Shown here: piece after piece, positions 6,911 through 34,501 of the stretch
Position numbering within the stretch: position 1 is the first letter of the stretch
How the letters are laid out: every line of letters starts with the position of its first letter
Assembly (NCBI GenBank): GCA_965216755.1
Contig: CBDCGL010000011.1
Location: forward strand, 704,001-768,000
Reading direction: 5' to 3'
Length of the DNA stretch: 64,000 nt
Source: Alphaproteobacteria bacterium
GTDB taxonomy: Bacteria; Pseudomonadota; Alphaproteobacteria; UBA7887
Translations under genes and position numbers: made by a program
Notes under the pieces: generated by a model
What the model saw: only the letters and a program-made list of their open reading frames with translations
The model's database searches: none
What the model was told of the DNA's origin: nothing

Positions 6911-6911
6911 A

Positions 6912-9956: not shown

Positions 9957-10000
9957 TTGACCATAGGTTGGCGCCAGGTATAATTTATCAGACGATAAAT
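9957..10000 (+). promoter_or_regulatory. Sigma70-type promoter of the coxMSL-like operon overlapped by the second operator
   Basis: TTGACC (9957-9962), 16-bp spacer, TATAAT (9979-9984); operator ATTTATCagacGATAAAT at 9983-10000. Confidence 0.65.
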
Positions 10001-11147: not shown

Positions 11148-11168
11148 CGCATCGCGCCGGGTAGGAGA

Positions 11169-11681: not shown

Positions 11682-14146
11682 TGACGCGCGGACAAGAGTT
11701 GTTGAAGAAGTCGCGGCAGAAGGAGGCTCCACGCGACGAATATAAATGGATCGGCAAGGATATGAAGCGGGTCGAGGACCCCCGATTGCTGACCGGTCAG
11801 GGAAGATATATCGACGACATTCAATTGCCCAACATGGCCCACGCTGCGGTGCTCGGTAGCCCTTACGCCCATGCCAAGATCGTGTCGATTGACAAACAGC
11901 GCGCGGAGGCGCTGCCGGGTGTTGTGTGTGTACTGACTGGGGCCGATATTGCCAAAACAACCGGTCCGGTGCCGTCTTTTGGAAGCCCGCCATGCACGCA
12001 ACATTGCGTTGCAATTGATCGCGTGCGTCATGTCGGCGAGGCAGTGGTGGCTGTCGTTGCCGAAACGCGCTACATCGCCGAAGACGCGCTGGCGCTGATC
12101 GACGTCACCTACGAGGAGTTACCGGTTGTCGTGGATCCGGAGGCCGCCGTCACGTCGACGGGCGACGCCGTGCTACATCCGGAACGGGGCGACACGAATG
12201 TTGCGCTGCAAAAAAAGTTCACTTTCGGCCCCGTCGATGATGACTTCAGCAATGCCGATCGAATCGTCAAAAGAAAGCTGCGGTGGCCAAGGTCGGGCGC
12301 ACAACCCATGGAGACCGTGGGGGCGGTGGCAAACTATGATCCGGGTGCCGGGAAGTTCACGGTCCATGCCAATATCTCGATGTACAACTATGTTGGCTGG
12401 CTTATTGCTGTCTCACTTAACGTGCCGGCCACAAAATTGAATATCATTCCAACGGACGCCGGCGGCAGTTTTGGCAGCAAGCTGTTTGCGCACAAGGTGC
12501 CGACGCTGACCGCCGCGCTGGCACGCGCCGCGGGCCGGCCGGTCAAGTATTTGGAAGACCGGTCCGACAATATGGCCAATTGCGACAATCATGGGTCTGA
12601 TCGCGTCTACTATGCAGAAATGGCGCTAAAGGACGGCCTGATGACCGGCCTACGGTTCAAAGTCATCGATGACTACGGCGCCTACTTGCAGTTTGGCGTC
12701 GGCCATCACGCCAACGCGCTTTCCCAGGCATCCGGGCCCTACAAGCTCACCAGCGTTGAGATGGATTTGACCGCAGCCTTCACCAACAAGTGCCAGCAGG
12801 GCGCCTATCGCGGGTTCGGCTCGGAAGTGATGAACTTCCTACTGGAACGCATGGTCGACGCGGCGATTGACGAAGTCGGCGCGGATCCGATCGAGTTCCG
12901 CCGACAGAACTTGCTTAAGCCAGAAGATTTCCCGCATGTCATCCCGACCGGCAATCTTTACGACAGCGGCAATTATCCGGCGGTACTGGATGAAGCTGCG
13001 AACCAGCTTGACTATCAAGGTTGGCGCCAAAAACAAGCCGAGGCGCGCAAGGACGGCCGATATATCGGCATCGGCGTGGCGTCATGCCAGGAACGAAGCG
13101 TATTCAGTGCGACGGAGTTTTGGTTCCTGAACCCGACCGATACGCCGGGTTTCACGCTGACCAGTTCGCCGGAGGGCGTTTCGGTCAAGATCGATCCGAC
13201 CGGCAAAGCCTTTGTGACATTGAACGCGCCGTTTTGGGGCAATAGCCCCGAGACGGTTGTAACGCAAGTCTTGGCCGAACAACTGACCATGGATCCGGCG
13301 GATATCAGCATCGGTTATTCAGATACCGATTCGGGGTTGAGCGGCACCGGACCAGGCGGCAGTCGCTATACAGTGATGATTGCTGGCGCGCTTTCGGGGG
13401 CGGCCGAAAAGATCAAAAAGAAGCTCCTGACTGTGGCAGGACATATGCTGGAAGCCAGCCCGGGCGATCTGGAACTGGCCGATGGCCGGGTGACCGTAAA
13501 GGGCGTGCCGGAACATGGCAAAACCATCGCCGAAATCGCATTGCACGCACATTATTTTCGGTTGTCCATGCCGGATGAGCCGGAATTAACCAGCGGTATC
13601 GACGCGAGCCACACCTACGACCATCCGCTGACCACCATGCCATCGGACGACCGGACCGATCTTGGCGTCTTCTATCCGATCATGGGTCATATGTGCCACA
13701 TGCCCGTGGTTGAGGTCGACATAGAGACAGGCAAGATCTCGTTCCTCGACTATGTCGCGGTGCACGACTGCGGCACGATGGTCAACCCGATGACCCTGAA
13801 GGGCCATATCCGTGGTGGCACGGCGAGCGGCATTGGTTCTGCAGTCTATGAGCATTTCTACTATGACGAGAATGGACAGCTGTTGACGGCCAATTTCTCG
13901 GACTATCTGATCCCAACACTGCACGAACTGCCGGAGAATTTGCGCACGGGACATATCGAATCGCCATCGCCTTTTACGGAGTTTGGCATTAAGGGTGGTG
14001 GTGAGGGCGGCCGGATGGGGGCACCGCCGGCGGTGGCGGCAGCGGTCGAAGATGCGCTGAAGCCGCTTGGCGTCAAAGTCGACGCGTTGCCACTAACGCC
14101 CATTAACTTGCGTCGCCTCATTCGGTCCGCGCAGCAGAGCGCGTGA
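11681..14146 (+). CDS. Xanthine dehydrogenase family molybdopterin-binding (large, CoxL-like) subunit
   Basis: RVEDPRLLTGQGRYIDD, GGSFGSK, AYRGFG, GPGGSR, HDCGTMVNP, GIKGGGEGG. Start at ATG 11681 overlaps the coxS stop. Confidence 0.95.
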   Translation: MTRGQELLKKSRQKEAPRDEYKWIGKDMKRVEDPRLLTGQGRYIDDIQLPNMAHAAVLGSPYAHAKIVSIDKQRAEALPGVVCVLTGADIAKTTGPVPSFGSPPCTQHCVAIDRVRHVGEAVVAVVAETRYIAEDALALIDVTYEELPVVVDPEAAVTSTGDAVLHPERGDTNVALQKKFTFGPVDDDFSNADRIVKRKLRWPRSGAQPMETVGAVANYDPGAGKFTVHANISMYNYVGWLIAVSLNVPATKLNIIPTDAGGSFGSKLFAHKVPTLTAALARAAGRPVKYLEDRSDNMANCDNHGSDRVYYAEMALKDGLMTGLRFKVIDDYGAYLQFGVGHHANALSQASGPYKLTSVEMDLTAAFTNKCQQGAYRGFGSEVMNFLLERMVDAAIDEVGADPIEFRRQNLLKPEDFPHVIPTGNLYDSGNYPAVLDEAANQLDYQGWRQKQAEARKDGRYIGIGVASCQERSVFSATEFWFLNPTDTPGFTLTSSPEGVSVKIDPTGKAFVTLNAPFWGNSPETVVTQVLAEQLTMDPADISIGYSDTDSGLSGTGPGGSRYTVMIAGALSGAAEKIKKKLLTVAGHMLEASPGDLELADGRVTVKGVPEHGKTIAEIALHAHYFRLSMPDEPELTSGIDASHTYDHPLTTMPSDDRTDLGVFYPIMGHMCHMPVVEVDIETGKISFLDYVAVHDCGTMVNPMTLKGHIRGGTASGIGSAVYEHFYYDENGQLLTANFSDYLIPTLHELPENLRTGHIESPSPFTEFGIKGGGEGGRMGAPPAVAAAVEDALKPLGVKVDALPLTPINLRRLIRSAQQSA

Positions 14147-16435: not shown

Positions 16436-16680
16436 TTGTGTGACGAGCACACCCAGCACGGTGTTTTTGGCTCACTACGCGCCAATGCGAAGACTCATAT
16501 GGACATATTATCCACTTGCTTCCGCCGCGCGCGTGCGTATGATTTGCCTCACTCGGTTCGGCTTACAAATCGCATTGCCATGGTCTGCTGGACAACGTTT
16601 CCGACGTGCAATGAATGCGTGCGAAATCCCCACGGCGCCATCCGACGATTCTATCGAGCAGAGACGGTAGCCATGACAGG

Positions 16681-17217
16681 ATGCCCTCGGGTACTTCTGT
16701 TCGGCTGATAATTATCGCTGGAGCCGCCTTGGCGTTCACTGTCGCCAACCAAGTCCAAGCCGGCGTGGGTGGCGGCGTCGGCGCGTCGGCAAGTCAAACC
16801 ACGAGCGCAAGTGCCAATGTCGTTTCGCCAATCACGCTGACCAACAACGTTGGTCTGTCCTTCGGCACATTTGCACCGTCGACCAATCCGGGCACGGTTA
16901 CTGTTGACGTTGCGGGCGGAAGATCCGTTGTCAATGTCGGTGCGGCCGGTGGCACGGTGACAGCCGCAATTTTCTCAGTGGGTGGCGAGACAGGCAACAT
17001 CTTCGACATTACTTTGCCATCCAGTACAAGTATCGATCTGGTTTCAGGCGGCGGTGACCCGATGACGGTTGATAGTTTTGTCAGTGTTCCGGCGACGTCC
17101 GGGACTTTGTTCGGCGGCGCGTCGAGTCTATTTGTCGGCGCCACCCTCAATGTCAATGCCAATCAAACGGCCGGTTCCTACGAAGGCAATTTTGATGTCA
17201 CGGTGGCCTATCAATGA
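16681..17217 (+). CDS. DUF4402-like secreted pilin-type subunit 3
   Basis: Signal peptide; TSASANVVSPITL, LSFG, VGATLNVNANQTAGSYEGNFDVTVAYQ. Confidence 0.85.
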   Translation: MPSGTSVRLIIIAGAALAFTVANQVQAGVGGGVGASASQTTSASANVVSPITLTNNVGLSFGTFAPSTNPGTVTVDVAGGRSVVNVGAAGGTVTAAIFSVGGETGNIFDITLPSSTSIDLVSGGGDPMTVDSFVSVPATSGTLFGGASSLFVGATLNVNANQTAGSYEGNFDVTVAYQ

Positions 17218-17353
17218 CGTGCAAATGCGATGAATTGTCATGCAAAGTGCATAATCCCATGATAGCATCGCTAATAATGTCCGCGCTATTAGTGAAAACG
17301 ATGACGGCCGCGCAAGCGATTTATTTTGGGATATTGGGGCCAATTCATCAACG

Positions 17354-17899
17354 ATGACATCGGAGGGAAGAGTGCACACACCGTTGAGATTGATCGCTGC
17401 CGCGACAACACTGTTCATCGCGGGAACCCTGAGCCAGCACGCGTTCGCGCAGGCAAGCGCGACCGAATCGGCCGATGCGACTGCCAACGTCATTGCGCCG
17501 ATCGGTCTATCGCATATTGGCGACTTGGGTTTCGCGGATTTCATAGTTACAGGAGCTGGGACAGTTGTGGTTGACGCCTCGGCGTCGCGGTCGGCCACCG
17601 GATCTGTGACTTTGGCCGGCGGGACACCAACCGTGCCAACTTACACCGTCACCGGTGAAAGCGGTCGAACGTACCAAGTTGATTTGCCGGCAGACAGCGC
17701 CCATTCGGTCACGAACGGCGTCGATACGATCGATCTCATCAGTTTTGTCGACAGTTTCGGTGGTACAGATGCCGCGCCGCTTGGGGGCACGATTGGCACC
17801 TCTGACGTATTCACTGTCGGCGCGACCCTAAACATCCTCGGTGCCGTATCGTCGGGGCCGTATTCGGGATCTTTCGACGTTATCGTCGCATACAACTAG
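17354..17899 (+). CDS. DUF4402-like secreted pilin-type subunit 4
   Basis: Signal peptide (AFA); ADATANVIAPIGL, LGFAD, VGATLNI...GPYSGSFDVIVAYN. Confidence 0.85.
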   Translation: MTSEGRVHTPLRLIAAATTLFIAGTLSQHAFAQASATESADATANVIAPIGLSHIGDLGFADFIVTGAGTVVVDASASRSATGSVTLAGGTPTVPTYTVTGESGRTYQVDLPADSAHSVTNGVDTIDLISFVDSFGGTDAAPLGGTIGTSDVFTVGATLNILGAVSSGPYSGSFDVIVAYN

Positions 17900-17973
17900 T
17901 CGAACGCTAATGCTGTTCGCGGCGGATTATTGCGCGCAGTATCTCACCGCTATTTGCTGAATTCTGGCAACAC

Positions 17974-18825
17974 GTGAATTTTCATCACCTCAGCGGACTT
18001 CGTGTTTGGCTTTGTTTGCTTCACGTCTTTGTGGGCAGCGGAGCGAACCTCGCGTACGCCCAAGGCATCGGCAACGTCAGTGTCAATCCGACGCGGGTCG
18101 TGCTGGAAGGGCGTGCGCGGAGCGGTGAGGCGACTGTATACAATCGCGGTAATGAGCCGGCCACCTATCGGATATTCTTTCGTGAGATGGCCATGACCGC
18201 CGAGGGTGGTTTGCAGACCTTGGAAGAGGTGCCAGCGAATTACCCTTCGGCCTCGTCGATCATTCGCTACTCACCGCGCCAAGTGACACTTGGGCCTGGC
18301 GAAAGCCAAACCATACGATTGCTCGCGCGTAAACCGGCGGATTTGCCGCCCGGCGAGTATCGTTCGCATTTGGTCGTGCAGGCTGTGCCCCCACCCGATG
18401 CAGGGCAAACCATCGAATCGTTGGCGCTGGAGGAAAACCAAATTCAGATCCAACTGATTCCGGTGTTCGGGATCTCGATACCGATCATCGTCCGCCACGG
18501 CGAATTGGCTGCAACCGCTGCCTTGTCCGACCTGGCGATCGAAAACACGGCGAACGGCCCGCAGCTCAACTTGCGCATTCAACGCGACGGCAACAAATCC
18601 CTCTATGGCGATATCGCGGTGACCTACACCAACAGTGGCTCAAGCGAATTTCAGGTCGGTCTGATTCGCGGCGTCGGTGTCTACACGACAACCGACAGCC
18701 GAAACGTTCGTCTATCATTGCAGACGCCGAGCGGTGTATCCCTAGCTGCTGGCGGAAAAATCAGCGTCACGTATCAAACTGACAACGGGCAGCTTCTCGC
18801 TCAGGCGAGTCTTGCTCTGCGCTAA
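17974..18825 (+). CDS. Fimbrial periplasmic chaperone (PapD_N-like)
   Basis: Signal peptide; VSVNPTRVVL, YSPRQVTLGPGESQTIRL, GEYRSHL, GISIPIIVR. Confidence 0.88.
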   Translation: MNFHHLSGLRVWLCLLHVFVGSGANLAYAQGIGNVSVNPTRVVLEGRARSGEATVYNRGNEPATYRIFFREMAMTAEGGLQTLEEVPANYPSASSIIRYSPRQVTLGPGESQTIRLLARKPADLPPGEYRSHLVVQAVPPPDAGQTIESLALEENQIQIQLIPVFGISIPIIVRHGELAATAALSDLAIENTANGPQLNLRIQRDGNKSLYGDIAVTYTNSGSSEFQVGLIRGVGVYTTTDSRNVRLSLQTPSGVSLAAGGKISVTYQTDNGQLLAQASLALR

Positions 18826-18834
18826 GGCGACGAC

Positions 18835-21800
18835 GTGAATCGGCCCGCGCCCTTTTGGCGAGTCGCCAATTGGGCAACGGCGATTCTGATTCTGTTGAAC
18901 GCTCTTCCGCAGTTGGTCATGCCGGCTGACAGCGCTTTGGCGGCGTTGTCACCGCAACGGCCAGACGACGAGAGCTTGCTCATATTTGAGATCCATCTGC
19001 GGCCGTATTTGTTGAGCGACGGCGTGTTCGCCTATCCGGCAGCGGACGACGTCCTGTTGCCACTCGAGACGCTGTCGTTCTTGTTCGAGTTCCCAATTAC
19101 CATCGACCTGGCGAAGGGACGCGCTGAAGGCTGGTTCCTCAGCGAGGATCGAACGTTCTTGCTCGACCTCGTGGCAGAACAGGTGCTGATTGCGGGCGCG
19201 GCGGCCCGCTTCGAGCCTGATCTTGTCGCTTGGTACGACGACGATATCTACGTGGCGGCGCGATTGTTCACCGAGTGGTTTCCGATAGATCTTGTTGTGC
19301 AGGCCGCGCGCCTGGTCATCGACGTGGAACCCAGAACGCCACTTCCGTTGCAGGAACGTATGGGGCGCGAACAGCGCGCCGCACGTTTGGCCTCGGCCTC
19401 CGAAGCGCCAAAACTACCACGCCGCGAAACGCCATACCGCGCCCTCGATTGGCCTTATATCGATGCCTCCTTGCGGACCGGCTACGATACGGTGCGCGCC
19501 GACACGGGCTGGGGCTTCGAAGGCAGTTATGGGTTTCGTTTAGCCGGTGATCTCGCCTACATGACGGCGGACAGTTTCTTTGGCGGCAATCAAGATGATC
19601 GCCTGTCCCAGGCGCGGTTGACCCTGGGGCGCCGTGATCCTGACGCAGATCTTCTTGGTCCTGTCGGCGCAACACAATTCAGTCTCGCCGACGTGTTCAC
19701 GCCCCAGCATCCATTGATCGCGCGTCAAACCGAAGGGCGCGGGGTGAGCGTGTCGAATATGCCGCTGACCCGCGCAAGCGAATTCGACCGCACGACGTTG
19801 CGCGGCCCGCTTTTGCCAGGCTGGGAAGTTGAGCTCTACAGAAATGACGCGTTGATCGCGTTTCAGCGGGCCGGCGACGATGGCCGCTATGAGTTCCAAG
19901 ACGTGCCGCTTATCTTCGGCAACAATCGATTGACTCTCAGATTCTATGGGCCCCAAGGCCAACGCCGCGAAGAAACGGAATCACTGGTTATCGGTGCGGA
20001 CATGGTGCCGCGTGGAGATCACCGTTACGCGGTTGCCGTCAATCAGCAAGACGAAGCCACACTGCCGTTTGGCGATGAACCACGTCGTGCCGGGCAACCA
20101 GACGCGAGCCGAGGTCAGGCGCGCGCGGTCGCCATTTATGAAGCCGGCGTTCACGAGCGCGCGTCCGTCGGCGCCGCAGTGGCGAGTTACGTTCTTGACG
20201 ATGGCCGGCATACCTACCTGACAACAGGTGTTCGCGGGACGGTTTTTGGCAGTTTCGTTCGCGCCGACATTGCGCGAGATTCAAAGGGTGGTACAGCCGC
20301 GCAGCTGGCTATGCAAACGAGAATTGCCAATCAAAGCCTCGCCGCCGAGCATGCCCAGTTCTTCGATTTCATAAGTGAGCGTGAGACGCAAACCGGCGAC
20401 CTCTTGCGCAGTGAAAGTGCCCTGCGCCTGAACGGGACTTTGCCGCGGTTTGGCGGATGGCAAATTCCGTATGCCTTGCGTCTTGGTGTCGAGCGTCGCG
20501 AGTCGGGGCTCACAGAGTTCGACGTGTCAAACCGCCTGTCCGTTCATATCCGCGCGTTGTCGTCGTCAAACCAACTGAATGCCCGCGCCAGGCGCGGTGG
20601 CGGTGTGGCGAGCACCGAAACCCTCGATGGCTCATGGTTAATCAGCTATCGCATGAAAAGTGTATCGATGCGCGGCGAACTCAGTTATCGCGTGCATCCG
20701 TCGCCGGATTTTTTGTCGGTCGCATTGACCGGTGACTATCGGATCGAGCCGGATATCACGGCACGGGCCGGCATCACGCGACAATTGTCGAACGACCGCC
20801 ACACGACTATTACCGCGGGACTGTCTCAGAGATTCGAACATGTGGCGATGGGTCTCGACGGGCGTGTGGCCGACGATGGTGATAAGTTTGTCGGGCTATC
20901 GCTGTCCTTCGCCATGGGGCGCGAACCACGGGGCGGCGGCTTAACCATGCAGCCACGCCATTTCGCCGAGAATGGCGGTGTTTCGGCGCGCGTTTTCCTG
21001 GATCGGGATTTGGATGGGCGTTTCAGCCCTGGCGACGAACCGCTGGAAGGCGTCGCCCTTAAGGGCACCGCAAATGATACGCCGACCACAGACTCCAATG
21101 GCATTCTGATGTTGGTCGGATTGCCAGACGCGCGTCCCACCGATGTGGCCGTCGATATGACCACCTTGGAAGATCCGTATCTGATTCCGCTTGACGACGG
21201 CTGGGAAATCGTGCCGCGCGCGGGCCGCACGGCGGTATTGGATTTCGCCGTCGTCCCAACCGGAGAGATCGACGGTTTTGTCTATTTGCGTTCAAACCAC
21301 AATGCGCAGGTTGCATCGAATGTGAGTTTGGATCTGCTCGACATGAATGGGGCCATCGTCGCCAATACCAGATCTGCTTTCGACGGTTTTTATCTGTTTG
21401 AGTTTGTAAAGCCCGGTTCATATGAAATTCGCGTGGCGCCGGGGCAATTGGATCGCCTCGGTCTGCTTCCGGCACCCGATAAAACCGTCACGATCGGGCC
21501 GGATGGCGATGTAATCAGCGGCGTCGACATATTTCTCGAGCGGGAATTTGAAGACACACGCGAAGCGTCGCTGGCTCCAGCGGGCCAGGCCGCCGATGTC
21601 AAGCCACCATCTACGTCGGAGATCGTCAGTGCTGCGGATCGGGCCGTGCCCGTGGGGACCGACACCTATGTACAATTGGCGGCCTACAGCAATGCACGCG
21701 GCGCCATGGAGGCGTGGCATCGTGTTGTCACTTCGGCTCCCGAGATGTTCAACGGCCTGAGTCCACGCATAGAACCCGCGGAATCGGTAGTTGCAACGGA

Positions 21801-21918
21801 CACACTTTATCGGCTGAGAACCGGTCCTCTGGCTGATCGCGCTGCGGCCGACAATTTCTGCCGGCAATTGCGGATCATCGGTCAGGATTGTTTTCCGGTC
21901 GTTCAGGTCGGCCGCTAA
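18835..21918 (+). CDS. Outer-membrane usher-like protein with C-terminal SPOR domain
   Basis: Directly follows the chaperone. Plug-like GWEVELYRND...YEFQDVPL..GNN....FYGPQG segment, amphipathic beta-strands, VFLDRDLDG and DGFYLFEFVKPGSY Ig-like domains, then YVQLAAY...LYRLRTGPL...FCRQL...DCFPV (SPOR). Confidence 0.8.
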   Translation: MNRPAPFWRVANWATAILILLNALPQLVMPADSALAALSPQRPDDESLLIFEIHLRPYLLSDGVFAYPAADDVLLPLETLSFLFEFPITIDLAKGRAEGWFLSEDRTFLLDLVAEQVLIAGAAARFEPDLVAWYDDDIYVAARLFTEWFPIDLVVQAARLVIDVEPRTPLPLQERMGREQRAARLASASEAPKLPRRETPYRALDWPYIDASLRTGYDTVRADTGWGFEGSYGFRLAGDLAYMTADSFFGGNQDDRLSQARLTLGRRDPDADLLGPVGATQFSLADVFTPQHPLIARQTEGRGVSVSNMPLTRASEFDRTTLRGPLLPGWEVELYRNDALIAFQRAGDDGRYEFQDVPLIFGNNRLTLRFYGPQGQRREETESLVIGADMVPRGDHRYAVAVNQQDEATLPFGDEPRRAGQPDASRGQARAVAIYEAGVHERASVGAAVASYVLDDGRHTYLTTGVRGTVFGSFVRADIARDSKGGTAAQLAMQTRIANQSLAAEHAQFFDFISERETQTGDLLRSESALRLNGTLPRFGGWQIPYALRLGVERRESGLTEFDVSNRLSVHIRALSSSNQLNARARRGGGVASTETLDGSWLISYRMKSVSMRGELSYRVHPSPDFLSVALTGDYRIEPDITARAGITRQLSNDRHTTITAGLSQRFEHVAMGLDGRVADDGDKFVGLSLSFAMGREPRGGGLTMQPRHFAENGGVSARVFLDRDLDGRFSPGDEPLEGVALKGTANDTPTTDSNGILMLVGLPDARPTDVAVDMTTLEDPYLIPLDDGWEIVPRAGRTAVLDFAVVPTGEIDGFVYLRSNHNAQVASNVSLDLLDMNGAIVANTRSAFDGFYLFEFVKPGSYEIRVAPGQLDRLGLLPAPDKTVTIGPDGDVISGVDIFLEREFEDTREASLAPAGQAADVKPPSTSEIVSAADRAVPVGTDTYVQLAAYSNARGAMEAWHRVVTSAPEMFNGLSPRIEPAESVVATDTLYRLRTGPLADRAAADNFCRQLRIIGQDCFPVVQVGR

Positions 21919-22975: not shown

Positions 22976-23116
22976 TCCGACAGAATGGTTCAATATGGTC
23001 GGAAAGTGCTCTAGATCAACCTGCGATCAAACGGAATCGTTTGATCGAAGATAAGTTGACCGATATCAAATAGATAAAGCCTCACACGTGAACGCATGTG
23101 AGCGTGAAAGGCTTTA
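22976..23116. repeat. Short palindromic intergenic repeat, CIR/RIME/Bru-RS-like architecture
   Basis: CTAG at 23011; hairpin CGATCAAACG-gaat-CGTTTGATCG; A-rich spacer; hairpin bounded by TAAAGCCT...AGGCTTTA that supplies the soxA stop; a further half-unit TCCGAC...GTCGGAAAGTGCTCTAG at 22976-23014. Confidence 0.55.
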
Positions 23117-23911
23117 GCGGCGCACCGCCGGCGCCTCGATCGGTAAGCCCGTTGCACGCCAAGCCAGAAACAGTTCAAGATTGACATAATCCGGCGCGCC
23201 AAAGGGGAGGGGTTCGGCGCGGACCCCAGCGTTGCAGAAGCGTAGCCGGCGATGGAGCGAGCCGACGGTCTGCCATTCCAGGCGATAGGACGGGTAGCCG
23301 TTGCCATGACCTTGGCTCAGTCGATCGCCGCGTAGCATCTTATCCCAGTTGTCGTCGTGACAGTGGCTGCATGCCAAATTCAATTGGCCCCGCCGCTGAT
23401 AAAAATAGGTCCGTCCGGCCTCGAAATAGGGTCGAGCCGCGCCATTCACGCCAACATGTATTGGTATCCCATTTGATAGGTACGCAACAAAAGACGTCAG
23501 TTCGAGAAGGTCTTGGGATTCGTAAGGCAGCAATGTTGCTTGCTGGTAACGCTGACGGCAAAGGTTAATGCGCTGCTCTAAATTAACCAGATGTTGTTCT
23601 TGGTCATCGTAGATCGGGTAACGGGCGGCGACACCAGCCAAATCGTCGCCGCCGGTCCCGTGACAATCAGCGCAGGCGATTGCCGCCGATCCTTCGGCGC
23701 GGCGCCACAGATCTTCACCGGCATCAACCCAAAGGAATCCTGGATTGGCGAACGGGTCGTCCTGGAGCGCGCGCGTGTCTGGAGACTGAAACGCATAGCC
23801 GGATTGGAGCGAACCTGGTGAGAGTGGGCGATCGTCCGAGGCGAGGTCGGAAACGCGGATAAAAAGCATCGCGGCGACAACAACAAACGCTGTTATGCGC
23901 GCGGCACTCAT
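23114..23911 (-). CDS. soxA: SoxA-type diheme cytochrome c
   Basis: LQDDPFANPGFLWV, CADCH, LEQRINLC, RRGQLNLACSHCH, YPSYRLEWQ, RLRFC...VRAEP, LELFLAWR. Confidence 0.92.
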   Translation of the reverse strand: MSAARITAFVVVAAMLFIRVSDLASDDRPLSPGSLQSGYAFQSPDTRALQDDPFANPGFLWVDAGEDLWRRAEGSAAIACADCHGTGGDDLAGVAARYPIYDDQEQHLVNLEQRINLCRQRYQQATLLPYESQDLLELTSFVAYLSNGIPIHVGVNGAARPYFEAGRTYFYQRRGQLNLACSHCHDDNWDKMLRGDRLSQGHGNGYPSYRLEWQTVGSLHRRLRFCNAGVRAEPLPFGAPDYVNLELFLAWRATGLPIEAPAVRR

Positions 23912-24228
23912 GCGACCGTGATACGGGCCGTCTCGCGAAAAGTGACACCCTCTTGGTCAGTCCACAGAAATTCCATCGCCCCACTCTCGACCGCGGTCGT
24001 GAAAAACGACAGGAGCGGGTTGGCGGCCACCGCCGGGCGAAACTCCGCCCTGAAAACTTCCATGCCGTTATAAAGGCAGACAAAATCCGTCAGGATGTTG
24101 CGCGGTATCGCCTTGCCGACGGAATCCCGTCGAAAACCTGTTTCCATGGGATGGGCGATCAAGGTCTTGATTTCGATGACCTCGCCAACCTTTGCAGTCT
24201 CTGGAACGGCGATGCGAACCTTGGCCAT
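23908..24228 (-). CDS. soxZ: SoxZ sulfur-carrier subunit
   Basis: IKTLIAHPMETGFRRD..GKAIP, AANPLLSF, WTDQEG. Confidence 0.92.
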   Translation of the reverse strand: MAKVRIAVPETAKVGEVIEIKTLIAHPMETGFRRDSVGKAIPRNILTDFVCLYNGMEVFRAEFRPAVAANPLLSFFTTAVESGAMEFLWTDQEGVTFRETARITVA

Positions 24229-24238
24229 GTCCCGCGCC

Positions 24239-24703
24239 CTAGATCAAATCAACGCAGGCCGCGAGGGTCACGATGGTCTTCGCGGAACCCGACCAGAGAG
24301 TCCCATCGCTCATGGCGGCGACAGCGACAATGGACTGAGAATCCGCGAGCCTTATGCGCGTAGTCACCCGCGCTCTGCCGGATCGTGCATTGAGGTAGTA
24401 TCGTGCAACGTCCGGCAACGGGTTTTCTTCGGAGAACACATGGATCGCGCGCACATGGTCTTCTTCGGTCATGGCACATTCGACCTCCACCGACAGCGAG
24501 ACCGAGTTACCATTTTCCGTGATCTCGGGCAGCGTGACGGTAACTTTGCCGTCTCGAATAGGATTGTCGCCAAAAGCGACGCGAATGGCTTCGGCCATCG
24601 ATTGCGGCGTCGCCGCGGCCGGCACCGCGACAAGACTGACCGCCGCGCCGCCGGCACCAAGGACGAACGCTCTGCGTGTCTGAGCTGTATGCAGCGGTGT
24701 CAA
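24239..24703 (-). CDS. soxY: SoxY-like sulfur-carrier protein with atypical C-terminus
   Basis: Tat signal TRRAFV; PEITENGNSV, EENPLP, TRIRLADSQ; ends VTLAACVDLI instead of VTIGGCGG. Confidence 0.85.
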   Translation of the reverse strand: MTPLHTAQTRRAFVLGAGGAAVSLVAVPAAATPQSMAEAIRVAFGDNPIRDGKVTVTLPEITENGNSVSLSVEVECAMTEEDHVRAIHVFSEENPLPDVARYYLNARSGRARVTTRIRLADSQSIVAVAAMSDGTLWSGSAKTIVTLAACVDLI

Positions 24704-25185
24704 CGGCTTGAATCCGTGGTTCGTAATGTCTCCAAATAGGCGACCACGTCCTCAATCTCTTGTGCGCTGAGAACGGTCTTGCCGACAAAGGCGCGGCTGA
24801 CCTGGCGCAGGCCTTCAACACGGAAATAGGTTGGCATGACCGTATTGGCATTCAACCGAGTCGAATCGACCAGCCGAAGTCGAAACTGCGCCGCGTTCAA
24901 GCGATCCGCCACCATCGACAAGTCGGGGCCCAAATTGCCCTGAAAAGGCTCATCGATCGATTCCACCACGTGACACAAGAGACAATGTCCGCGATCGCGA
25001 TCAAGGAAAACGATGCGTCCGTTGCGGGCATCACCGATGCGGTCCGTGAGCGCTTCCGGGATACCATCGTCAACAACCTCGTATTCGGGCGGCACGGGCA
25101 TGGCTGTGTCGGCATCTGCAATGGCGGTTGTGATGATCGACGCCACGGCGCCGACTATCCACGCGGCCAAATTGATTGCGGGCAT
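24700..25185 (-). CDS. soxX: SoxX-type monoheme cytochrome c
   Basis: GDARNGR..F.DRDRGHCLLCH, GNLGPDL, TVMPTY, LSAQEIEDVVAYL. Confidence 0.9.
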   Translation of the reverse strand: MPAINLAAWIVGAVASIITTAIADADTAMPVPPEYEVVDDGIPEALTDRIGDARNGRIVFLDRDRGHCLLCHVVESIDEPFQGNLGPDLSMVADRLNAAQFRLRLVDSTRLNANTVMPTYFRVEGLRQVSRAFVGKTVLSAQEIEDVVAYLETLRTTDSSR

Positions 25186-25211
25186 GTACCGCGCCTCACC
25201 GACATGTCGCT

Positions 25212-27410
25212 CTAGGCGGCACTCAGATCCACATCCATCAATGGGAACTGTCGAATGCGCTTGCCCGTGGCAGCGAAAATCGCGTTGAGCACGGCCGGGG
25301 CCGCGACGGCTATCGTCGGTTCACCGACTCCGCCCCAAAAACCGCCGGATGGCATCACGATGGCCTCGACGTCAGGCATTTCCGCAATGCGCATCGACTG
25401 GTACGTGTCGAAATTCTCTTGTTCGATGCGTCCACCCTTAACGGTGCAGCCGCCGTAAAACAGAGCGGATAATCCATAGACGAAGGAGCCTTCTATCTGG
25501 GCCTCGATCTGCTGCGGATTGACCGCGTGGCCGGGATCTGTCGCGGCAACAATGCGGTGCACCTTGAGCGTGCCTTCCGCGTCAATGGAGATCTCCGCGC
25601 ACGCCGCAAGATAGCTCGCGAATGTATTGCAGGCGGCAAGGCCGCGATACACACCCTCCGGCGTCGGTGTGTCCCATCCCACGCGTTCGGCCACCGCGTT
25701 CAACACCGCAAGCGCCTGGGGGTGGTTTGCCATCAACTTTTGGCGAAACGCGAGTGGATCCTTACCAGCCGCGTGCGCCAACTCGTCCATGAAGCACTCA
25801 AGATAGATAGCGTTCTGGTTTATGTTGACCCCGCGCCAGAAACCCGGCGGCACATGCGGATTACGCATCGCGTGGTCCGCCAGCAAGTTGGGAATGGTAT
25901 AGACGATCGCGTGATCACCGCCGGGCAGAAGGCCCTGAAACGTGATCGGATCGGCACCGTCCTCGCGCAGCCGCGCCGGTCTGACCGCGGCCAGGATGGA
26001 CTGCCCTGAAATGCGGATATGCAGGCCGACCAGATCACCATTTTCGTCGAGACCGCCTTCCAATCGCGCTTGCGTGACCGGATGATAATGGCCGTGCAGC
26101 ATATCTTCTTCGCGCGACCACAGGAGCTTGACCGGGGTACCCGCCATTTGCTTCGCGATCAAAACGGCCTGGCGGACGAAGTCATGGAAGGCACCCCGCC
26201 TGCCAAAGCCGCCGCCCAAATGAATTTTGTAAACGTCGCATTGGCTCACCGGCAGTTCCGCTGCCTCGGCGGCCACGGCCAATGCGGCTTCGCCGTTTTG
26301 CGTCGGGCACCAGACCTGGCATTTTTCCGAAGTCCAAACCGCCGTCGCATTCATCGGTTCCATGGTGGCGTGGTTTTGGTACGGGTACCCATAGACCGCT
26401 TCGATCTTTTGCGAGGCCCCTGCAATTGCGGCCTTGGCGTCGCCGCTTTCGTTGCCGACAAAGGCTTCTTCTGCGGTCAAACCCTCCTTCAGGAATGCCG
26501 CAATCGATTCGTTTGAAACGTCGGCGTTGGGACCGTTATCCCACCGAATAGGCAACGCATCCAAAGCCGTTTTCGCGCGCCACCAAGTGTCCGCCACCAC
26601 CGCGACCGCGTTGTCGTCAACCCGGACAACCGCGTGCACGCCAGGCATGGACAAAACCGCACTATCGTCGAAAGACTCGACGGTTCCGCCAAAAACGGGG
26701 CACGCTTTGATGGCTGCGGTCAGCATGCCCGGCAATTTCAGATCGGCGCCGTAGACCTGTTTGCCGGTCAGCTTGTCGCGCGTGTCGAGCCGCTTCAGTG
26801 GTTTGCCTGCGATCTTCCAGTCCTTTGGATCCTTTAAGGCGACTTCAAGCGGCGGCGACAACGCGGCGGCGGCGGTTGCGACTTGGCCATAGGTCGTTGC
26901 CCTGCCGCTGGAGCTATGCGTAATCACACTTGCCGATGCGGTACATTCCGCGGCGGAGACGCCCCATTCGCTCGCGGCCGCTTCGATCAGCATCAGGCGC
27001 GCGGCCGCGCCGCCCTCGCGAACATATTGATGGCTTTGACGAATACCCCGACTGCCGCCGGTCGAGAAGCTCTGCCAAATGCGATCGCGCGCCAAGTTCT
27101 CGCCGGGCGTCGGATATTCAGTGGCCACCTTTGCCCAATCGCAATCGAGTTCCTCGGCCACCAGCTGCGCCAATCCGGTCAAGGTGCCCTGGCCCATCTC
27201 TGAACGCGCGATTCTGACGACGACCGTGTCATCTGGTTTGACCACCACCCACGCGTTGATTTCGGGTGTTTGGTCGCCGGCGATCGCGCCAGACTTCGTG
27301 CCAGGCAGCGAGAAACCGATCGATAGCCCGGCGCCCGTCGCGGCGGCACCGATGACAAATCCGCGGCGTGTCAGGGAGAGGGAGCGGTTCATTTTTTCGG
27401 CCTCCTTCAC
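25212..27410 (-). CDS. IorB-like (isoquinoline 1-oxidoreductase/aldehyde oxidoreductase) molybdopterin subunit
   Basis: Twin-arginine LTRRGFV, RSEMGQG, STGGSRG, HATMEPMN, GGGFGRR, GFWRGV, QIEGS, GGVGEP. Confidence 0.93.
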   Translation of the reverse strand: MKEAEKMNRSLSLTRRGFVIGAAATGAGLSIGFSLPGTKSGAIAGDQTPEINAWVVVKPDDTVVVRIARSEMGQGTLTGLAQLVAEELDCDWAKVATEYPTPGENLARDRIWQSFSTGGSRGIRQSHQYVREGGAAARLMLIEAAASEWGVSAAECTASASVITHSSSGRATTYGQVATAAAALSPPLEVALKDPKDWKIAGKPLKRLDTRDKLTGKQVYGADLKLPGMLTAAIKACPVFGGTVESFDDSAVLSMPGVHAVVRVDDNAVAVVADTWWRAKTALDALPIRWDNGPNADVSNESIAAFLKEGLTAEEAFVGNESGDAKAAIAGASQKIEAVYGYPYQNHATMEPMNATAVWTSEKCQVWCPTQNGEAALAVAAEAAELPVSQCDVYKIHLGGGFGRRGAFHDFVRQAVLIAKQMAGTPVKLLWSREEDMLHGHYHPVTQARLEGGLDENGDLVGLHIRISGQSILAAVRPARLREDGADPITFQGLLPGGDHAIVYTIPNLLADHAMRNPHVPPGFWRGVNINQNAIYLECFMDELAHAAGKDPLAFRQKLMANHPQALAVLNAVAERVGWDTPTPEGVYRGLAACNTFASYLAACAEISIDAEGTLKVHRIVAATDPGHAVNPQQIEAQIEGSFVYGLSALFYGGCTVKGGRIEQENFDTYQSMRIAEMPDVEAIVMPSGGFWGGVGEPTIAVAAPAVLNAIFAATGKRIRQFPLMDVDLSAA

Positions 27411-27862
27411 GTCTTGTTTCCGGCGGCCAAGTGAATCCCGCGCCGAACCCGGTTAAAAGTGCCGCAGCGGCAGATGTTGGTGATTTCCGCGTTGATATCT
27501 TCGTCAGTCGGACTTGGTGTCTTTTCCAGAAATGCCGCCACCGCCATGATCATGCCGGTTTGGCAGTATCCGCATTGGGGCACGTCCAGCTCTGCCCACG
27601 CCTGTTGGACTGGATGGTTGCCGTCCGCGGAAAGCCCCTCAATCGTGACGATTTCCTCATTTTCCGTGAGTGCGTCAGCGGGCATAACGCAAGAGCGTAC
27701 GGCTTCACCATCGATATGCACGGTGCAGGCGCCACATTGCGCGATACCGCAACCGTATTTGGCGCCTGTGAGATCCAAGTGATCCCTGAGCACCCAGAGT
27801 AGAGGGGTGCCCGCGTCCACGGTCACATCTACGATCTGTCCGTTCACCTTTAATTTGGCCAC
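27407..27862 (-). CDS. IorA-like 2x[2Fe-2S] subunit
   Basis: TPLLWVLRD, KYGCGIAQCGAC, VPQCGYCQTG, NICRCGT. Confidence 0.95.
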   Translation of the reverse strand: MAKLKVNGQIVDVTVDAGTPLLWVLRDHLDLTGAKYGCGIAQCGACTVHIDGEAVRSCVMPADALTENEEIVTIEGLSADGNHPVQQAWAELDVPQCGYCQTGMIMAVAAFLEKTPSPTDEDINAEITNICRCGTFNRVRRGIHLAAGNKT

Positions 27863-28376
27863 GTCTTAAATCTCCCTCTGCGCAACGGACCACAGCACAT
27901 GCGTTTGCCCGTTGATGCGGCGCGCGATGACAACAAGGCTCACCAGCCAATCAGGGTGCTGAGTCGCTCGATATAGCTCGGGTCCGCGCACGATCCGATT
28001 GCGAAGCTTGCTCGATACACAATACAACCTTGGCGCAAACTGGAAAATCACCGAAAAGTTGAGACCTGTATCGATTTTATATGTGCATCGGTGATGAGAT
28101 TCATTGAACGCAGTACGGTGTCAGTCCGAGTTTGGATCAATTGCATCAAGATGCGCGGACGGCCGACCGAGAAATTCAGTGGTAGATAGGGTACTGCTCC
28201 GACGAGTTCATCGGGCGGCGCATTTCTCGTTCGCGCTTTCGCATGGCCAGGTAAACATTGAGTTCCATTTCACGATGAATACGATGGGTCGCACGTTCTT
28301 TTGACCTGTTGTGGATCGCCCTAGAATTATTAAGGACGCTTCTTAATCTGCCGCACGCTCGGAAATCGGGTGAAGG

Positions 28377-29909
28377 TTGCGGCCAAACGTGGGGACCGGC
28401 GGCTTGTTTCGATACTTAATGCTATGCCTGATATTGCTTGCCGGAAGTGGGATTCATATCGCTGCGGCCGCCGATAATCTGCGGCCGTTGATACCGCTTA
28501 ATGAAAATGACGTCTGGCGCCCGGGCGAAGGCAACTACGCGGGCGAATTTAACCGTTGGCTATGGGAAAACTTTGGTGCGCCGCGGCCCATCAGCCATGC
28601 GGTGCCAGAAGCCGTGTCGGCGGACATGGCGACGACGTTCTCAAACAGCGATCAAGCTTTTTCCGCACCGCTGATCAGCCTTGGACCCAATGATCTGCGG
28701 GCTTTTGCATTCGGTCGCCATTTGTTTCGTCGCAACTGGGTCAGTGCCCCAGCGGCCCTTGAGAACCTCGATGGCCTTGGACCGACGTTCAATCGACGCT
28801 CCTGTGTTGGGTGTCATACGCGGGATGGTCGCGGTCGGCCTCCGAGCGCGGCGGATGAGCCCATGAATTCGATGTTGGTGCGGGTCAGCCTGCCAGGCAC
28901 GGATGTTCGTGGTGGCCCGGCGCCACATCCACTTTACGGCACACAATTGCAGGACAAAGCGGTTGGCGGTGTTCCCACGGAGGGACGCGTCACGATCCGG
29001 TACCGCGAGATCGCGGGAACATTCGCGGATGGAGAGCCGTATTCCCTGCGCGCGCCGATCTATACTTTTGCCGAGCTCAGATATGGGCCAATCGGTGACG
29101 ATGTGCTGTATTCGCCGCGTGTGGCGCCAGCAGTTTATGGTCTCGGGCTCCTCGAAGCGATCGATCAAGCGACGATCGAAGCGGCCGCTGATCCCGAAGA
29201 TGCCGACGGTGACGGCATATCGGGAAAAGTAAACCGAGTTTGGGATCCCGTATCAGGTAAAACCGAATTGGGTCGGTTCGGTTGGAAGGCGAATACCGCC
29301 AACCTTCGCACGCAGGTTGCCGCCGCGGCAGCTGGTGATTTGGGAATTACGACCTCTGTTTTTCCGGGGAACAACTGTCCGCCCGTGCAGAACGCTTGCG
29401 TGGATGCTCCGGCCGGAGGCGATCCGGAATTAGACGATGCCGGCCTTGAAAAGTTGGTTCTATACGCGCGCTCTCTCGGTGTGCCCGCCCGGCGCAATGT
29501 GGTCGCGCCCGAGGTACGACGTGGTGCCGAAATGTTCGAGGACGCCGGATGCACGGGTTGCCACGCGCCACAACACACGACCGGTGCCAGTCCAGCCGTC
29601 CCCGAGCTCGCCGAACTGATAATTTATCCGTACACCGACCTTCTGCTGCACGACATGGGCGAGGGGTTGGCCGATGGGCGACCCGACTTCGAGGCGTCTG
29701 GCAGCGAATGGCGCACGCCAGCACTCTGGGGCATCGGATTGGTCGAGCGTGTCAATATGCACCAGAACTTCCTGCACGACGGACGCGCGCGCGGTCTGAT
29801 GGAGGCTGTGCTTTGGCATGGAGGTGAAGCTGCGGCTGCGCGCGACGCGGTTCTGGCCATGCCCAAGACCGATCGCGACGCCTTGGTCTCTTTTCTCGAG
29901 TCGCTTTAA
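28377..29909 (+). CDS. Di-heme oxidoreductase/putative peroxidase family protein (DHOR, DUF1111)
   Basis: DGLGPTFN..SCVGCH.RDGRG, GLGLLEAI, GRFGWKA, CTGCH, YTDLLLHDMG, EWRTPALWG, LHDGRAR, WHGGEA. Confidence 0.92.
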   Translation: MRPNVGTGGLFRYLMLCLILLAGSGIHIAAAADNLRPLIPLNENDVWRPGEGNYAGEFNRWLWENFGAPRPISHAVPEAVSADMATTFSNSDQAFSAPLISLGPNDLRAFAFGRHLFRRNWVSAPAALENLDGLGPTFNRRSCVGCHTRDGRGRPPSAADEPMNSMLVRVSLPGTDVRGGPAPHPLYGTQLQDKAVGGVPTEGRVTIRYREIAGTFADGEPYSLRAPIYTFAELRYGPIGDDVLYSPRVAPAVYGLGLLEAIDQATIEAAADPEDADGDGISGKVNRVWDPVSGKTELGRFGWKANTANLRTQVAAAAAGDLGITTSVFPGNNCPPVQNACVDAPAGGDPELDDAGLEKLVLYARSLGVPARRNVVAPEVRRGAEMFEDAGCTGCHAPQHTTGASPAVPELAELIIYPYTDLLLHDMGEGLADGRPDFEASGSEWRTPALWGIGLVERVNMHQNFLHDGRARGLMEAVLWHGGEAAAARDAVLAMPKTDRDALVSFLESL

Positions 29910-32844: not shown

Positions 32845-34158
32845 GTGATCATGCATAGGAACAAGGGGCGATCCAGGCCGGCGTCCGGGCTGTTCGAGAC
32901 GTTCGAAAAGGACGCGGCGCAAGCTGATCGGGATTTCTTCGGGCGCATTGCCCACCCGGACCGCCGCGGTTTTCTGCGCGATGCCGGATTGTTGACGATG
33001 AGTGGGCTGCTTGGCGCCACGATACCATTTCATCGCACCATGCCGGCCGGTTTTATTCCGGTAGCTTTGGCCCAAGACGCTATGTTGGAGGGCAAGGATG
33101 GTTTGACTTTGCTGAACGATCGGCCGATCAATGCCGAGACACCGCCGCACTTGCTCGACGATCCGATCACGCCGACCCACCGGCATTTCATTCGCAACAA
33201 TGGCGTCCCGCCAGAAACCGCGGACGCTGCGATGTGGACGTTGACCATTGATGGGCTGGTCGACAACCCCATGACCCTGTCGATCGCTGATTTGCGCACT
33301 GGGTTCGAAACCGTCAGCCTGGCCCTGACCATCGAGTGCGGAGGCAACGGTCGTGCCTTTTTTGATCCACCCGCGAAAGGCAACCAATGGACGTATGGTG
33401 CGGTGGCCTGTTCCATGTGGACCGGTGTGCGTCTGAAGGATGTTTTGGCGGCCGCTGGCGTAAAGGATGGTGTGGTTTATACCGCCCATTTTGGTGCCGA
33501 CGCGCACCTGTCTGGAGATCCTGACAAATTGCCAATCTCGCGCGGCGTGCCGATCGCCAAGGCAATGAGCGATACGGTGTTGATTGCGTTCGAGATGAAT
33601 GGCGGGCCGCTCCATCCAATGAACGGCGCGCCGCTGCGGCTGGTTGTGCCGGGGTGGCCGGGGTCCTGCTCACAAAAATGGCTCAGGCGTGTAACCCTGC
33701 GTGACATAGTCCATGACGGTCCGAAGATGACGGGCACGTCGTATCGTGTGCCCAATCGGCCCATTGCGCCGGGCGAGGATGTCGCCAAGGAAGACTTCGC
33801 CATTATCGAACGCATGCCTGTGAAATCCTTGATCACTAGCCCCGCGACAGGCACAGAAACAAACGGCCGGACAATTGAAGTGCGCGGCCACGCGTGGTCC
33901 GGTGATCGCGATATCAGCCAAGTCGAAGTGTCGATCGATTTCGGCGCGACCTGGACAAATGCGACGGTCGACGGACCCGTTAATGCCGGTGCCTGGCAAA
34001 ACTGGCGCATAAACGTTGAATTTCCGCAGGCGGGATACTACGAGGCTTGGGCGCGTGCAACCGATAGTCATGGTGTCGCGCAGCCCCATGCCATCGCGTG
34101 GAACCCCAAGGGATATCTCAACAACAGCATGCACCGTGTTGCGATTCATGTCGTTTGA
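32845..34158 (+). CDS. Periplasmic sulfite oxidase family molybdoenzyme (SorA/SoxC-like)
   Basis: Tat RRGFL; FIRNNG, ECGGNGR, WTGVRL, GAPLRLVVPGW.G..SQKW, ARATD, WNPKGY. Confidence 0.93.
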   Translation: MIMHRNKGRSRPASGLFETFEKDAAQADRDFFGRIAHPDRRGFLRDAGLLTMSGLLGATIPFHRTMPAGFIPVALAQDAMLEGKDGLTLLNDRPINAETPPHLLDDPITPTHRHFIRNNGVPPETADAAMWTLTIDGLVDNPMTLSIADLRTGFETVSLALTIECGGNGRAFFDPPAKGNQWTYGAVACSMWTGVRLKDVLAAAGVKDGVVYTAHFGADAHLSGDPDKLPISRGVPIAKAMSDTVLIAFEMNGGPLHPMNGAPLRLVVPGWPGSCSQKWLRRVTLRDIVHDGPKMTGTSYRVPNRPIAPGEDVAKEDFAIIERMPVKSLITSPATGTETNGRTIEVRGHAWSGDRDISQVEVSIDFGATWTNATVDGPVNAGAWQNWRINVEFPQAGYYEAWARATDSHGVAQPHAIAWNPKGYLNNSMHRVAIHVV

Positions 34159-34501
34159 ATTGCATGTTTTGCGCACGACCTGGATTGCAAAATCTTGCGT
34201 CATGCTATCCGTGGCATGGCTCAGTGTTGCGATGGGCGCAAAAGCACAGAACGACTATGGCGCTTTGTTCGATGCAGAGGGCGTTGAACAGACCTATGGC
34301 TATTGTACCGCGTGCCACTCTGAGATGATCGTGGCCCAACAAGGCTTGAGTCGCACACATTGGGACGAGTTGCTGATATGGATGGTCGACGAGCAAGGCA
34401 TGCCGGAGATCGATGAACCAGATCGCTCGATCGTGCTCGATTATCTAGCGGCACATTATGGGCAGGATCGACCGAATTTCCCCCGCCGCGTGGGCGATTA
34501 A
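34148..34501 (+). CDS. Small monoheme cytochrome c (SorB-like partner)
   Basis: Signal peptide, CTACH, WMVDEQGMP, DYLAAHYG; overlaps the sulfite oxidase stop. Confidence 0.85.
   Translation: MSFELHVLRTTWIAKSCVMLSVAWLSVAMGAKAQNDYGALFDAEGVEQTYGYCTACHSEMIVAQQGLSRTHWDELLIWMVDEQGMPEIDEPDRSIVLDYLAAHYGQDRPNFPRRVGD

Follow-up and report, generated by a model that had tools for sequence, protein, structure and literature searches.

An IorAB-type molybdoenzyme in one operon with SoxXYZA in an alphaproteobacterium without detected soxB

The operon and its closest described relatives

Genome and metagenome surveys rely on Sox proteins as markers of thiosulfate oxidation. In the canonical Sox system, such as that of Paracoccus pantotrophus, a periplasmic SoxYZ carrier holds a C-terminal cysteine on a flexible arm (GGCGG) and is accompanied by SoxXA, with its conserved haem and cysteine ligands, and by SoxB and SoxCD. 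A six-gene operon in a 64-kb window of the genome of Alphaproteobacteria bacterium GCA_965216755.1 (contig CBDCGL010000011.1, positions 704,001-768,000; coordinates refer to this window unless marked otherwise) shares with that system the periplasmic location, the SoxXA ligands and the carrier cysteine, but a molybdenum (Mo) hydroxylase of another enzyme family, IorAB, occupies the place of SoxB and SoxCD. The label Ior denotes the two-subunit architecture of the Mo enzyme only, and implies no isoquinoline activity. The operon differs from canonical Sox also in its arm, which is not GGCGG, in the lack of SoxCD, in its separate SoxA and SoxYZ clades, and in that SoxB was not found in the genome. 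In the reading to which we give a probability of about 0.4, sulfur bound as an adduct to the cysteine of SoxY is oxidised by IorAB, which thereby replaces SoxB and SoxCD; all chemical steps of this reading are inferred.

An arrangement of this kind has been noted before in Starkeya novella. Its 'second sox gene cluster', as outlined in the text of Kappler & Nouwens (2013, Front Microbiol 4:304, PMC3797975), consists of soxX2Y2Z2A2F2 (Snov_1982-1977) and a xanthine-oxidase-family Mo enzyme (Snov_1975/1976), without SoxB or SoxCD. Common to that outline and to the window is an operon that joins duplicate-type SoxXA and SoxYZ to a molybdoenzyme of the xanthine-oxidase family and lacks SoxB and SoxCD. 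The two loci, likened by description and not by sequence, differ in the SoxF-like flavocytochrome c that Starkeya is described to have in its cluster and that the six-gene form of the window lacks, and in that Starkeya, by the same account, also possesses a complete canonical sox cluster whereas the window genome has no detected soxB. A literature search of paper texts found no functional study of soxXYZA or soxYZ linked to an IorAB-type Mo enzyme. The cassette is widespread and has been noted in print.

The carrier itself belongs to a little-described type. The best match of the window SoxY is TIGR04487, the 'SoxY-related AACIE arm protein' (SoxY_para_1), with which it shares the AAC arm and an acidic residue two places past the cysteine, the window arm being AACVD where the family name gives AACIE. 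No paper on the TIGR04487 family was found in the literature search. A large survey of SoxY expansion removed sequences without a 'GGC' motif (PMC11237559), and because of that step it does not cover the AAC-arm family; PMC13500833 contains nothing that bears on it. To judge from its family name, the 'quinoprotein dehydrogenase-associated SoxYZ-like carrier' (TIGR04557) is likewise a carrier of the SoxYZ type that goes with a periplasmic dehydrogenase and not with the Sox pathway. That carrier, however, is a fused SoxYZ with a pyrroloquinoline quinone enzyme as partner, and the window SoxY and SoxZ reach only 55 and 44 bits against its cut-off of 140.

In the window, six consecutive open reading frames (ORFs) of the minus strand run from 27862 to 23114, in the order iorA-iorB-soxX-soxY-soxZ-soxA. 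Neighbouring genes overlap by 4 bp at the first, third and fifth junctions, and gaps of 26 and 10 bp separate iorB from soxX and soxY from soxZ, so that the ORF map agrees exactly with the initial annotation, which had described this order on one strand with 4-bp overlaps or gaps of at most 26 bp. The small subunit of the xanthine-oxidase-family enzyme, with two [2Fe-2S] clusters and without signal peptide, is encoded by iorA (27407..27862, 151 amino acids; Pfam Fer2 and Fer2_2), and the molybdopterin-binding large subunit, periplasmic by its twin-arginine leader, by iorB (25212..27410, 732 amino acids). These are followed by a soxX paralogue (24700..25185, 161 amino acids) for a mono-haem cytochrome c, a soxY paralogue (24239..24703, 154 amino acids) for the carrier, soxZ (23908..24228, 106 amino acids; Pfam SoxZ) for its partner, and a soxA paralogue (23114..23911, 265 amino acids) for a di-haem cytochrome c with two further conserved cysteines. 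The leaders for twin-arginine translocation (Tat) that the initial annotation had noted on IorB and SoxY were read directly in the sequences (...LTRRGFVIG... and ...QTRRAFVLG..., respectively); IorA has none. A terminator-like hairpin with a T-rich tail (23081..23102, minus strand), a consensus match 12 nt past the soxA stop, is the likely end of the operon, in a region where 8 such sites were found against 7.0 expected by chance. The 514 bp between iorA and a divergent gene (27863..28376) are presumed to hold the promoter, and the promoter scan gave no sigma-70-like match on the operon's minus strand. Neither soxB nor soxCD occurs in the 64-kb window, and the operon contains no gene like flavocytochrome c sulfide dehydrogenase (FCSD). 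The six genes are best explained as one operon for a self-contained periplasmic module.

Three of the four Sox proteins score above the cut-offs of the curated 'true Sox' models, SoxX with 73.5 bits against 61 (TIGR04485), SoxZ with 86.9 against 76 (TIGR04490) and SoxA with 234 against 110 (TIGR04484). SoxY does not: the true-SoxY model TIGR04488 gives it 96.1 bits, below the cut-off of 125, while TIGR04487 gives 176.3 against 172 (175.7 in the six-frame genome search), and its tail reads ...TLAACVDLI in place of GGCGG. The residues that matter in a carrier and its cytochromes are preserved among the orthologues: Cys150 of SoxY is invariant in 56/56, CxxCH and Met117 of SoxX in 72/72, and the two CxxCH motifs, C118 and C226 of SoxA in 70/70. 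The assignment of cysteine ligands to particular haems is presumed from what is known of SoxXA in general. As SoxX, SoxZ and SoxA pass the curated models and the genomes that carry them can be without SoxB, surveys based on such markers may miscount the cassette.

IorB contains the domains MoCoBD_1 (E 2.5e-32) and MoCoBD_2 (E 7.2e-32), and missed the cut-off of every NCBIfam equivalog model. Among solved structures it matches best the aldehyde dehydrogenase large subunit 8gy3_C, aligned over residues 6-729 with E 1.4e-80. All 8 cysteines of IorA are invariant in 57/57 orthologues, as are E697 (in GGxGEPT) and Q74 (in EMGQG) of IorB in 56/56; these two residues are presumed to match the catalytic and active-site residues known from xanthine oxidase. 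IorB is also much better conserved than the carrier, its orthologues being 59-81% identical to the window protein and those of SoxY 42-76%, while the paralogues of IorB in its own genome reach at most 38%. The window enzyme and the IorAB-type enzymes represented by 8gy3 are alike in the full-length similarity of the large subunit, the small subunit with two [2Fe-2S] clusters, the Tat leader and the lack of a flavin adenine dinucleotide (FAD) subunit. They differ in that the window operon has no gene for a dedicated cytochrome subunit and has Sox proteins as partners; the 8gy3 enzyme, we assume, works with a cytochrome subunit. IorAB is best explained as a putative Tat-exported molybdenum hydroxylase of the xanthine-oxidase family, with neither an FAD subunit nor a cytochrome subunit of its own.

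Conservation of the cassette and the distribution of SoxB

The linkage was examined from the side of the carrier and from that of the enzyme. With an alignment of six AAC-arm SoxY proteins, 80 loci were collected from species-representative genomes, which by record title comprise 67 Pseudomonadota (41 Alpha-, 14 Beta- and 5 Gammaproteobacteria), 10 Methylomirabilota/Rokuibacteriota, 2 bins labelled Actinomycetota and 1 unlabelled record. The cassette is therefore found in Beta- and Gammaproteobacteria and Methylomirabilota beside Alphaproteobacteria. The SoxY arm is not GGCGG in 79/80 loci, the commonest forms being AACLE (23), AACIE (15) and SACLE (8). Where at least 4.5 kb of upstream sequence was present, iorB stood upstream of soxY on the same strand in 55/56 loci, L061 being the exception, and part of iorB was still visible in 18/24 of the shorter ones. 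Of the other sox genes, soxZ occurs in 80/81 loci, soxX in 72/80 and soxA in 65 of the 71 with enough sequence; soxY was the search query, and its own presence is uninformative. Starting from the enzyme, 401 genomes sampled evenly across the class yielded an IorB at least 60% identical to that of the window in 27, all remaining hits being at most 53% identical. The cassette is put at about 7% of this class-wide sample. Four of the 27 loci were cut by contig ends, and soxYZ lies in the unit in 19 of the 23 that could be assessed.

The composition of the loci also indicates which parts are constant. Five consist of iorA-iorB-soxY-soxZ without soxX or soxA, and in two of these minimal units (L084 and L101) no CxxCH-bearing ORF exists across 13-20 kb around the unit. 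Tandem IorAB-SoxYZ units were found at two loci, L072 and L085. Minimal and tandem units together indicate that the carrier and the Mo enzyme are the core, to which SoxXA and the flavocytochrome are added. Outside the cassette, the genes that flank it in the window each recur in at most 6/81 loci, and clustering of flanking ORFs gave nothing beyond generic families, present in 14 and in 9 loci. This lack of a conserved flanking gene and the mixture of phyla in the trees suggest a self-contained unit that moves horizontally. The best explanation of the distribution is a widespread, probably horizontally spread cassette with IorAB and SoxYZ as its invariable core. The recurrence of an identical gene order across dozens of genomes places the arrangement far beyond chance.

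At both tandem loci the units stand on one contig and carry differing arms, ...SACLEEGLI and ...ESACLD.., in bins labelled Streptomycetaceae. The label is probably a binning error, since the genes group with proteobacterial ones.

The trees, quick searches with support from the Shimodaira-Hasegawa-like approximate likelihood-ratio test (SH-aLRT) only, agree with a separate lineage. The SoxA proteins linked to Ior form one clade apart from the canonical ones, containing 27/28 Ior-linked rows and L061 (SH-aLRT 98), and AAC-type SoxYZ form a 33-row clade (SH-aLRT 96) although the arm columns were left out. The cassette IorB proteins form one 20-row clade (SH-aLRT 100) that includes a few stand-alone copies.

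The same loci bear on whether the Sox proteins would serve IorAB as an electron sink only. IorAB would then oxidise a free aldehyde or N-heterocycle, SoxX and SoxA would replace the cytochrome c subunit of the related membrane-bound aldehyde dehydrogenases, and SoxYZ would have no direct role. Consistent with this, the nearest structure, 8gy3_C, is an aldehyde dehydrogenase large subunit, IorAB has no cytochrome of its own while soxX starts 26 bp after iorB, a mono-haem cytochrome gene lies directly behind the second iorB of the genome described below, and one locus (L185) is iorAB-soxX-soxA without soxYZ. However, the partner most constantly found with the enzyme is SoxYZ, a carrier without redox cofactor; soxX is absent from 8/80 loci and soxZ is kept nearly throughout, and haem-free units exist. 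Moreover, the SoxY cysteine is invariant, and the active-site cysteines of SoxA are conserved as in catalytic SoxXA. We regard the pure electron-sink role as unlikely; the cytochrome-free iorAB-soxYZ units and the invariant cysteine favour over it a direct interaction between IorAB and SoxY. A complex prediction of SoxY (32-154), SoxZ and IorB (28-732), with alignments of 56 rows each, scored 0.81, 0.82 and 0.80, and 0.67 in a control with SoxY replaced, figures that speak neither for nor against binding.

The window genome (5.0 Mb, 99.82% complete) gave no match to the SoxB model TIGR04486 in the family search, and in tblastn the best hit of an alphaproteobacterial SoxB had an E value of 0.42. 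A survey of 41 genomes covered the window genome (G000), 22 members of its family, of which six are complete, and 18 further genomes from the class; the SoxB model scored above cut-off in 3/41, and the 22 family members gave no match. SoxB was searched for in 50 of the 80 cassette genomes, many of these 50 being incomplete bins; a match was found in 35/50 (32 above cut-off) and none in 15/50. At the 15 SoxB loci of cassette genomes that were inspected no ior gene was found, the SoxY tail is GGCGG or GGCG in 11 of them, and SoxA is only about 30% identical to that of the window. A module served by a distant soxB had been considered for the window genome and was rejected, soxB being found there neither by the family search nor by tblastn. 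Judged by its gene content, the module is shown to be independent of SoxB.

A SoxC-family gene does exist elsewhere in the genome, 3.3 Mb away at C11:4034764-4036002, with 564.7 bits against a cut-off of 420 and a one-haem ORF behind it. The statement of the initial annotation that the operon lacks soxB and soxCD is accordingly sound for soxB throughout the genome, and for soxCD in the operon and the window but not in the genome. The SoxC-family gene and its one-haem ORF (C11:4034644-4036525) stand alone, with no SoxYZ, SoxXA or SoxB nearby. As to other routes of sulfur oxidation, neither dsrA nor an HdrB-type match was found in the window genome, a point of context with little weight.

These results also weigh on the view that the genes are spare parts, that is, redundant SoxXA and SoxYZ isoenzymes that feed an ordinary SoxB/SoxCD pathway in trans, with the ior genes as accidental neighbours. 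A lack of functional significance has been raised as a possibility for the second cluster of Starkeya, and the low expression of that cluster (PMC3797975) would suit spare isoenzymes. The occurrence of SoxB in 35 of the searched cassette genomes, the scores of SoxX, SoxZ and SoxA above the 'true' Sox cut-offs and the SoxC-family gene of the window genome would suit them as well. Against it stand the lack of SoxB in a 99.8%-complete genome and in its 22 searched relatives, the 15 cassette genomes without a SoxB match, an arm other than GGCGG in all loci but one, the separate SoxA and SoxYZ clades and the near-constant linkage to iorB. This view appears highly improbable in general and is largely excluded for the window genome.

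The initial annotation had proposed to compare the unit with soxB across genomes and its SoxA and SoxY with the canonical clades, and had named grouping with canonical proteins, a distant soxB and an unconserved ior linkage as findings that would speak against a repurposed Sox module tied to the Mo enzyme. The cassette proved to occur without a SoxB match in part of its genomes, the window genome among them, its SoxA and SoxY fell into clades of their own, and the linkage was kept on both sides from which it was followed. The core of the proposal stood; of its three options, the pure electron sink is disfavoured by gene content, which does not separate resulfuration from substrate tethering.

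A second IorAB-SoxYZ locus in the same genome

The analysis added two observations, a second independent IorAB-SoxYZ locus in the window genome and a family without detected soxB in the 22 genomes searched. With tblastn of the six proteins, a second SoxYZ pair was found directly upstream of a second IorAB pair at C11:1276332-1284857 (4333-12857 of locus L001), outside the window. The order is a divergent FCSD-like flavoprotein, an FGE-sulfatase/PvdO-like protein, SoxY, SoxZ, a 161-amino-acid protein that matches no family, then IorA2 with IorB2, and at the end a mono-haem cytochrome c in place of SoxXA. The second SoxY ends in ...VTVGACA and is below both SoxY model cut-offs, and IorB2 is 38% identical to the window IorB. 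In the trees IorB2 belongs to a separate clade, shared with a paralogue of the same genome that has no adjoining SoxYZ, and the second SoxYZ belongs to a 12-row clade (SH-aLRT 100) with tails ...GAC[S/A/N], which also includes the soxXYZA clusters of the family. The second locus is an independent pairing of IorAB with SoxYZ, with a different IorB clade and a different SoxYZ clade. Two genomes, G002 (L051) and G013 (L050), repeat its gene order, and G009 has soxY upstream of iorB2. The family seems to depend on two independent versions of such carrier modules.

Genes of the IorB2 type occur in 3/401 sampled genomes of the class, all of the window's own family, and the idea that this locus is a widespread second cassette was rejected on that count. 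In the same family, the loci L040, L043-L047 and L049 carry soxX-soxY-soxZ-soxA clusters with the SoxY tail ...VTLGACS and no ior gene within 10 kb. A third arrangement is seen in G001 (L042), where iorB-iorA of yet another IorB clade are divergent from soxX-soxY(...LGACN)-soxZ. Beside the second locus itself, on the minus strand at 12933-15777 of L001, a haoB-like gene (TIGR04392, 285.6 bits against a cut-off of 200) adjoins a 604-amino-acid ORF with eight CxxCH motifs, a pair that resembles the hydroxylamine-oxidoreductase type and is unexpected in a Rhodospirillaceae-like alphaproteobacterium.

The pairing of SoxYZ with two different IorB clades in one genome would suit a carrier that maintained the enzyme. 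Enzymes of this family need a cyanolysable Mo=S group that is lost on damage, and a cytoplasmic sulfurase cannot reach the periplasm; persulfide-loaded SoxYZ could re-insert the terminal sulfido ligand into IorAB there, with SoxXA, or the flavocytochrome c sulfide dehydrogenase FccAB in the larger cassettes, charging the carrier from ambient sulfide. The operon has no XdhC-like chaperone gene, which would fit such a role. On the other hand, four to six genes in fixed order would be a costly means of repairing a single enzyme, four further IorB paralogues of the window genome manage without adjoining SoxYZ, each of the two IorB clades goes with a different arm, as a substrate-like fit would predict, and no precedent is known. 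We see only a slim chance that maintenance is the function of the module.

Possible chemistry of the module and the surrounding genes

In the reading preferred here, with IorAB acting on sulfur held by SoxY, SoxXA would load Cys150 of SoxY oxidatively with sulfide or sulfane sulfur, and in the eight-gene versions of the cassette FccAB would do so as well. The altered arm (AAC[V/I/L][D/E] instead of GGCGG) would carry the adduct into IorB, which could oxidise the bound sulfur with water-derived oxygen, in place of SoxCD and SoxB, so that sulfite or thiosulfate would be released without a hydrolase and the carrier thiol regenerated. The electrons would pass from the clusters of IorA to SoxX, SoxA or another c-type cytochrome, and the net reaction would resemble that of a persulfide dioxygenase with cytochromes as the electron acceptor. 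An FCSD-like flavoprotein gene, an optional part, stands within the unit in 38/80 loci and suggests that the input is reduced inorganic sulfur. That the module as a whole represents a SoxB- and SoxCD-independent periplasmic sulfur oxidation, in which a Mo hydroxylase of the xanthine-oxidase family acts on carrier-tethered sulfur, is put forward as a tentative and rather doubtful proposal.

Several points weigh against this chemistry. The xanthine-oxidase family normally hydroxylates carbon centres, and the closest solved relative of IorB is an aldehyde dehydrogenase. We know of no enzyme of the family that oxidises sulfur or a protein-tethered substrate, and the literature search found none. 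Among the 23 assessable orthologous iorAB loci, three lack any sox gene within 7 kb, and a fourth, L185, has soxX-soxA without soxYZ. In principle, the distant SoxC-family gene could act on SoxY-bound sulfane. The second sox cluster of Starkeya, in the expression data as presented in the text, is very weakly expressed on glucose, methanol and thiosulfate, and its function was left open there (PMC3797975); to the extent of those data, thiosulfate is probably not the inducer.

Some of these points suit an organic or one-carbon adduct. The SoxY cysteine would then bear an organosulfur or carbon adduct, such as an aldehyde thiohemiacetal or a mixed disulfide of methanethiol, and IorAB would hydroxylate a carbon of the adduct, in keeping with the known preference of the family for carbon centres and with the aldehyde dehydrogenase as closest structure. 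An FGE-sulfatase-like gene adjoins the second SoxYZ-IorAB locus, and the Starkeya cluster is silent on thiosulfate in the conditions reported (PMC3797975). Nevertheless, the sulfide-dehydrogenase-like flavoprotein inside nearly half of the units and the complete, catalytic-looking SoxXA point to inorganic sulfur, and the cassette has no conserved neighbour that would serve to take up or cleave organosulfur compounds. An organic adduct is accordingly held to be improbable.

If IorAB does oxidise sulfur on SoxY, the xanthine-oxidase family would gain a new type of reaction and its first member shown to work on sulfur and on a substrate bound to a protein, and the oxidative part of the sulfur cycle of soils and fresh waters would gain a new branch. 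The carriers of the cassette (Reyranella, relatives of Roseomonas, Burkholderiales and Methylomirabilota) are common in those habitats, and several cultured strains possess it, which makes the question directly testable. Among these strains are Roseiterribacter gracilis TMPK1 (L063), Filomicrobium insigne CGMCC 1.6497 (L102), Falsiroseomonas stagni DSM 19981 (L130) and Paracraurococcus ruber JCM 9931 (L120).

Near the operon, a di-haem oxidoreductase gene (28377-29909, plus strand; Pfam DHOR, 2.2e-95) is divergent from iorA across the 514-bp gap and is not conserved beside the cassette elsewhere. Five kb from the operon lies a gene for a SorA-like Mo enzyme of the sulfite-oxidase family (32845-34158, plus strand), closest to SorA/SorT but below all cut-offs, with 197 bits against the SoxC cut-off of 420. 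It is followed by a gene for a small c-type cytochrome, and the pair (32845-34501, plus strand) is not a conserved neighbour of the cassette. Since neither the di-haem oxidoreductase nor the SorA-like gene recurs beside the cassette, both are placed outside the conserved unit. Four sequencing runs carry the DNA, all of one study that may be the source sample, and no RNA run is among them. On the other side of the operon, at 16615-21918 on the plus strand, genes for a DUF4402 protein, a PapD-like chaperone and a 1027-amino-acid protein with a C-terminal SPOR domain stand in a row, possibly a cluster for a surface fibre of the chaperone-usher type.

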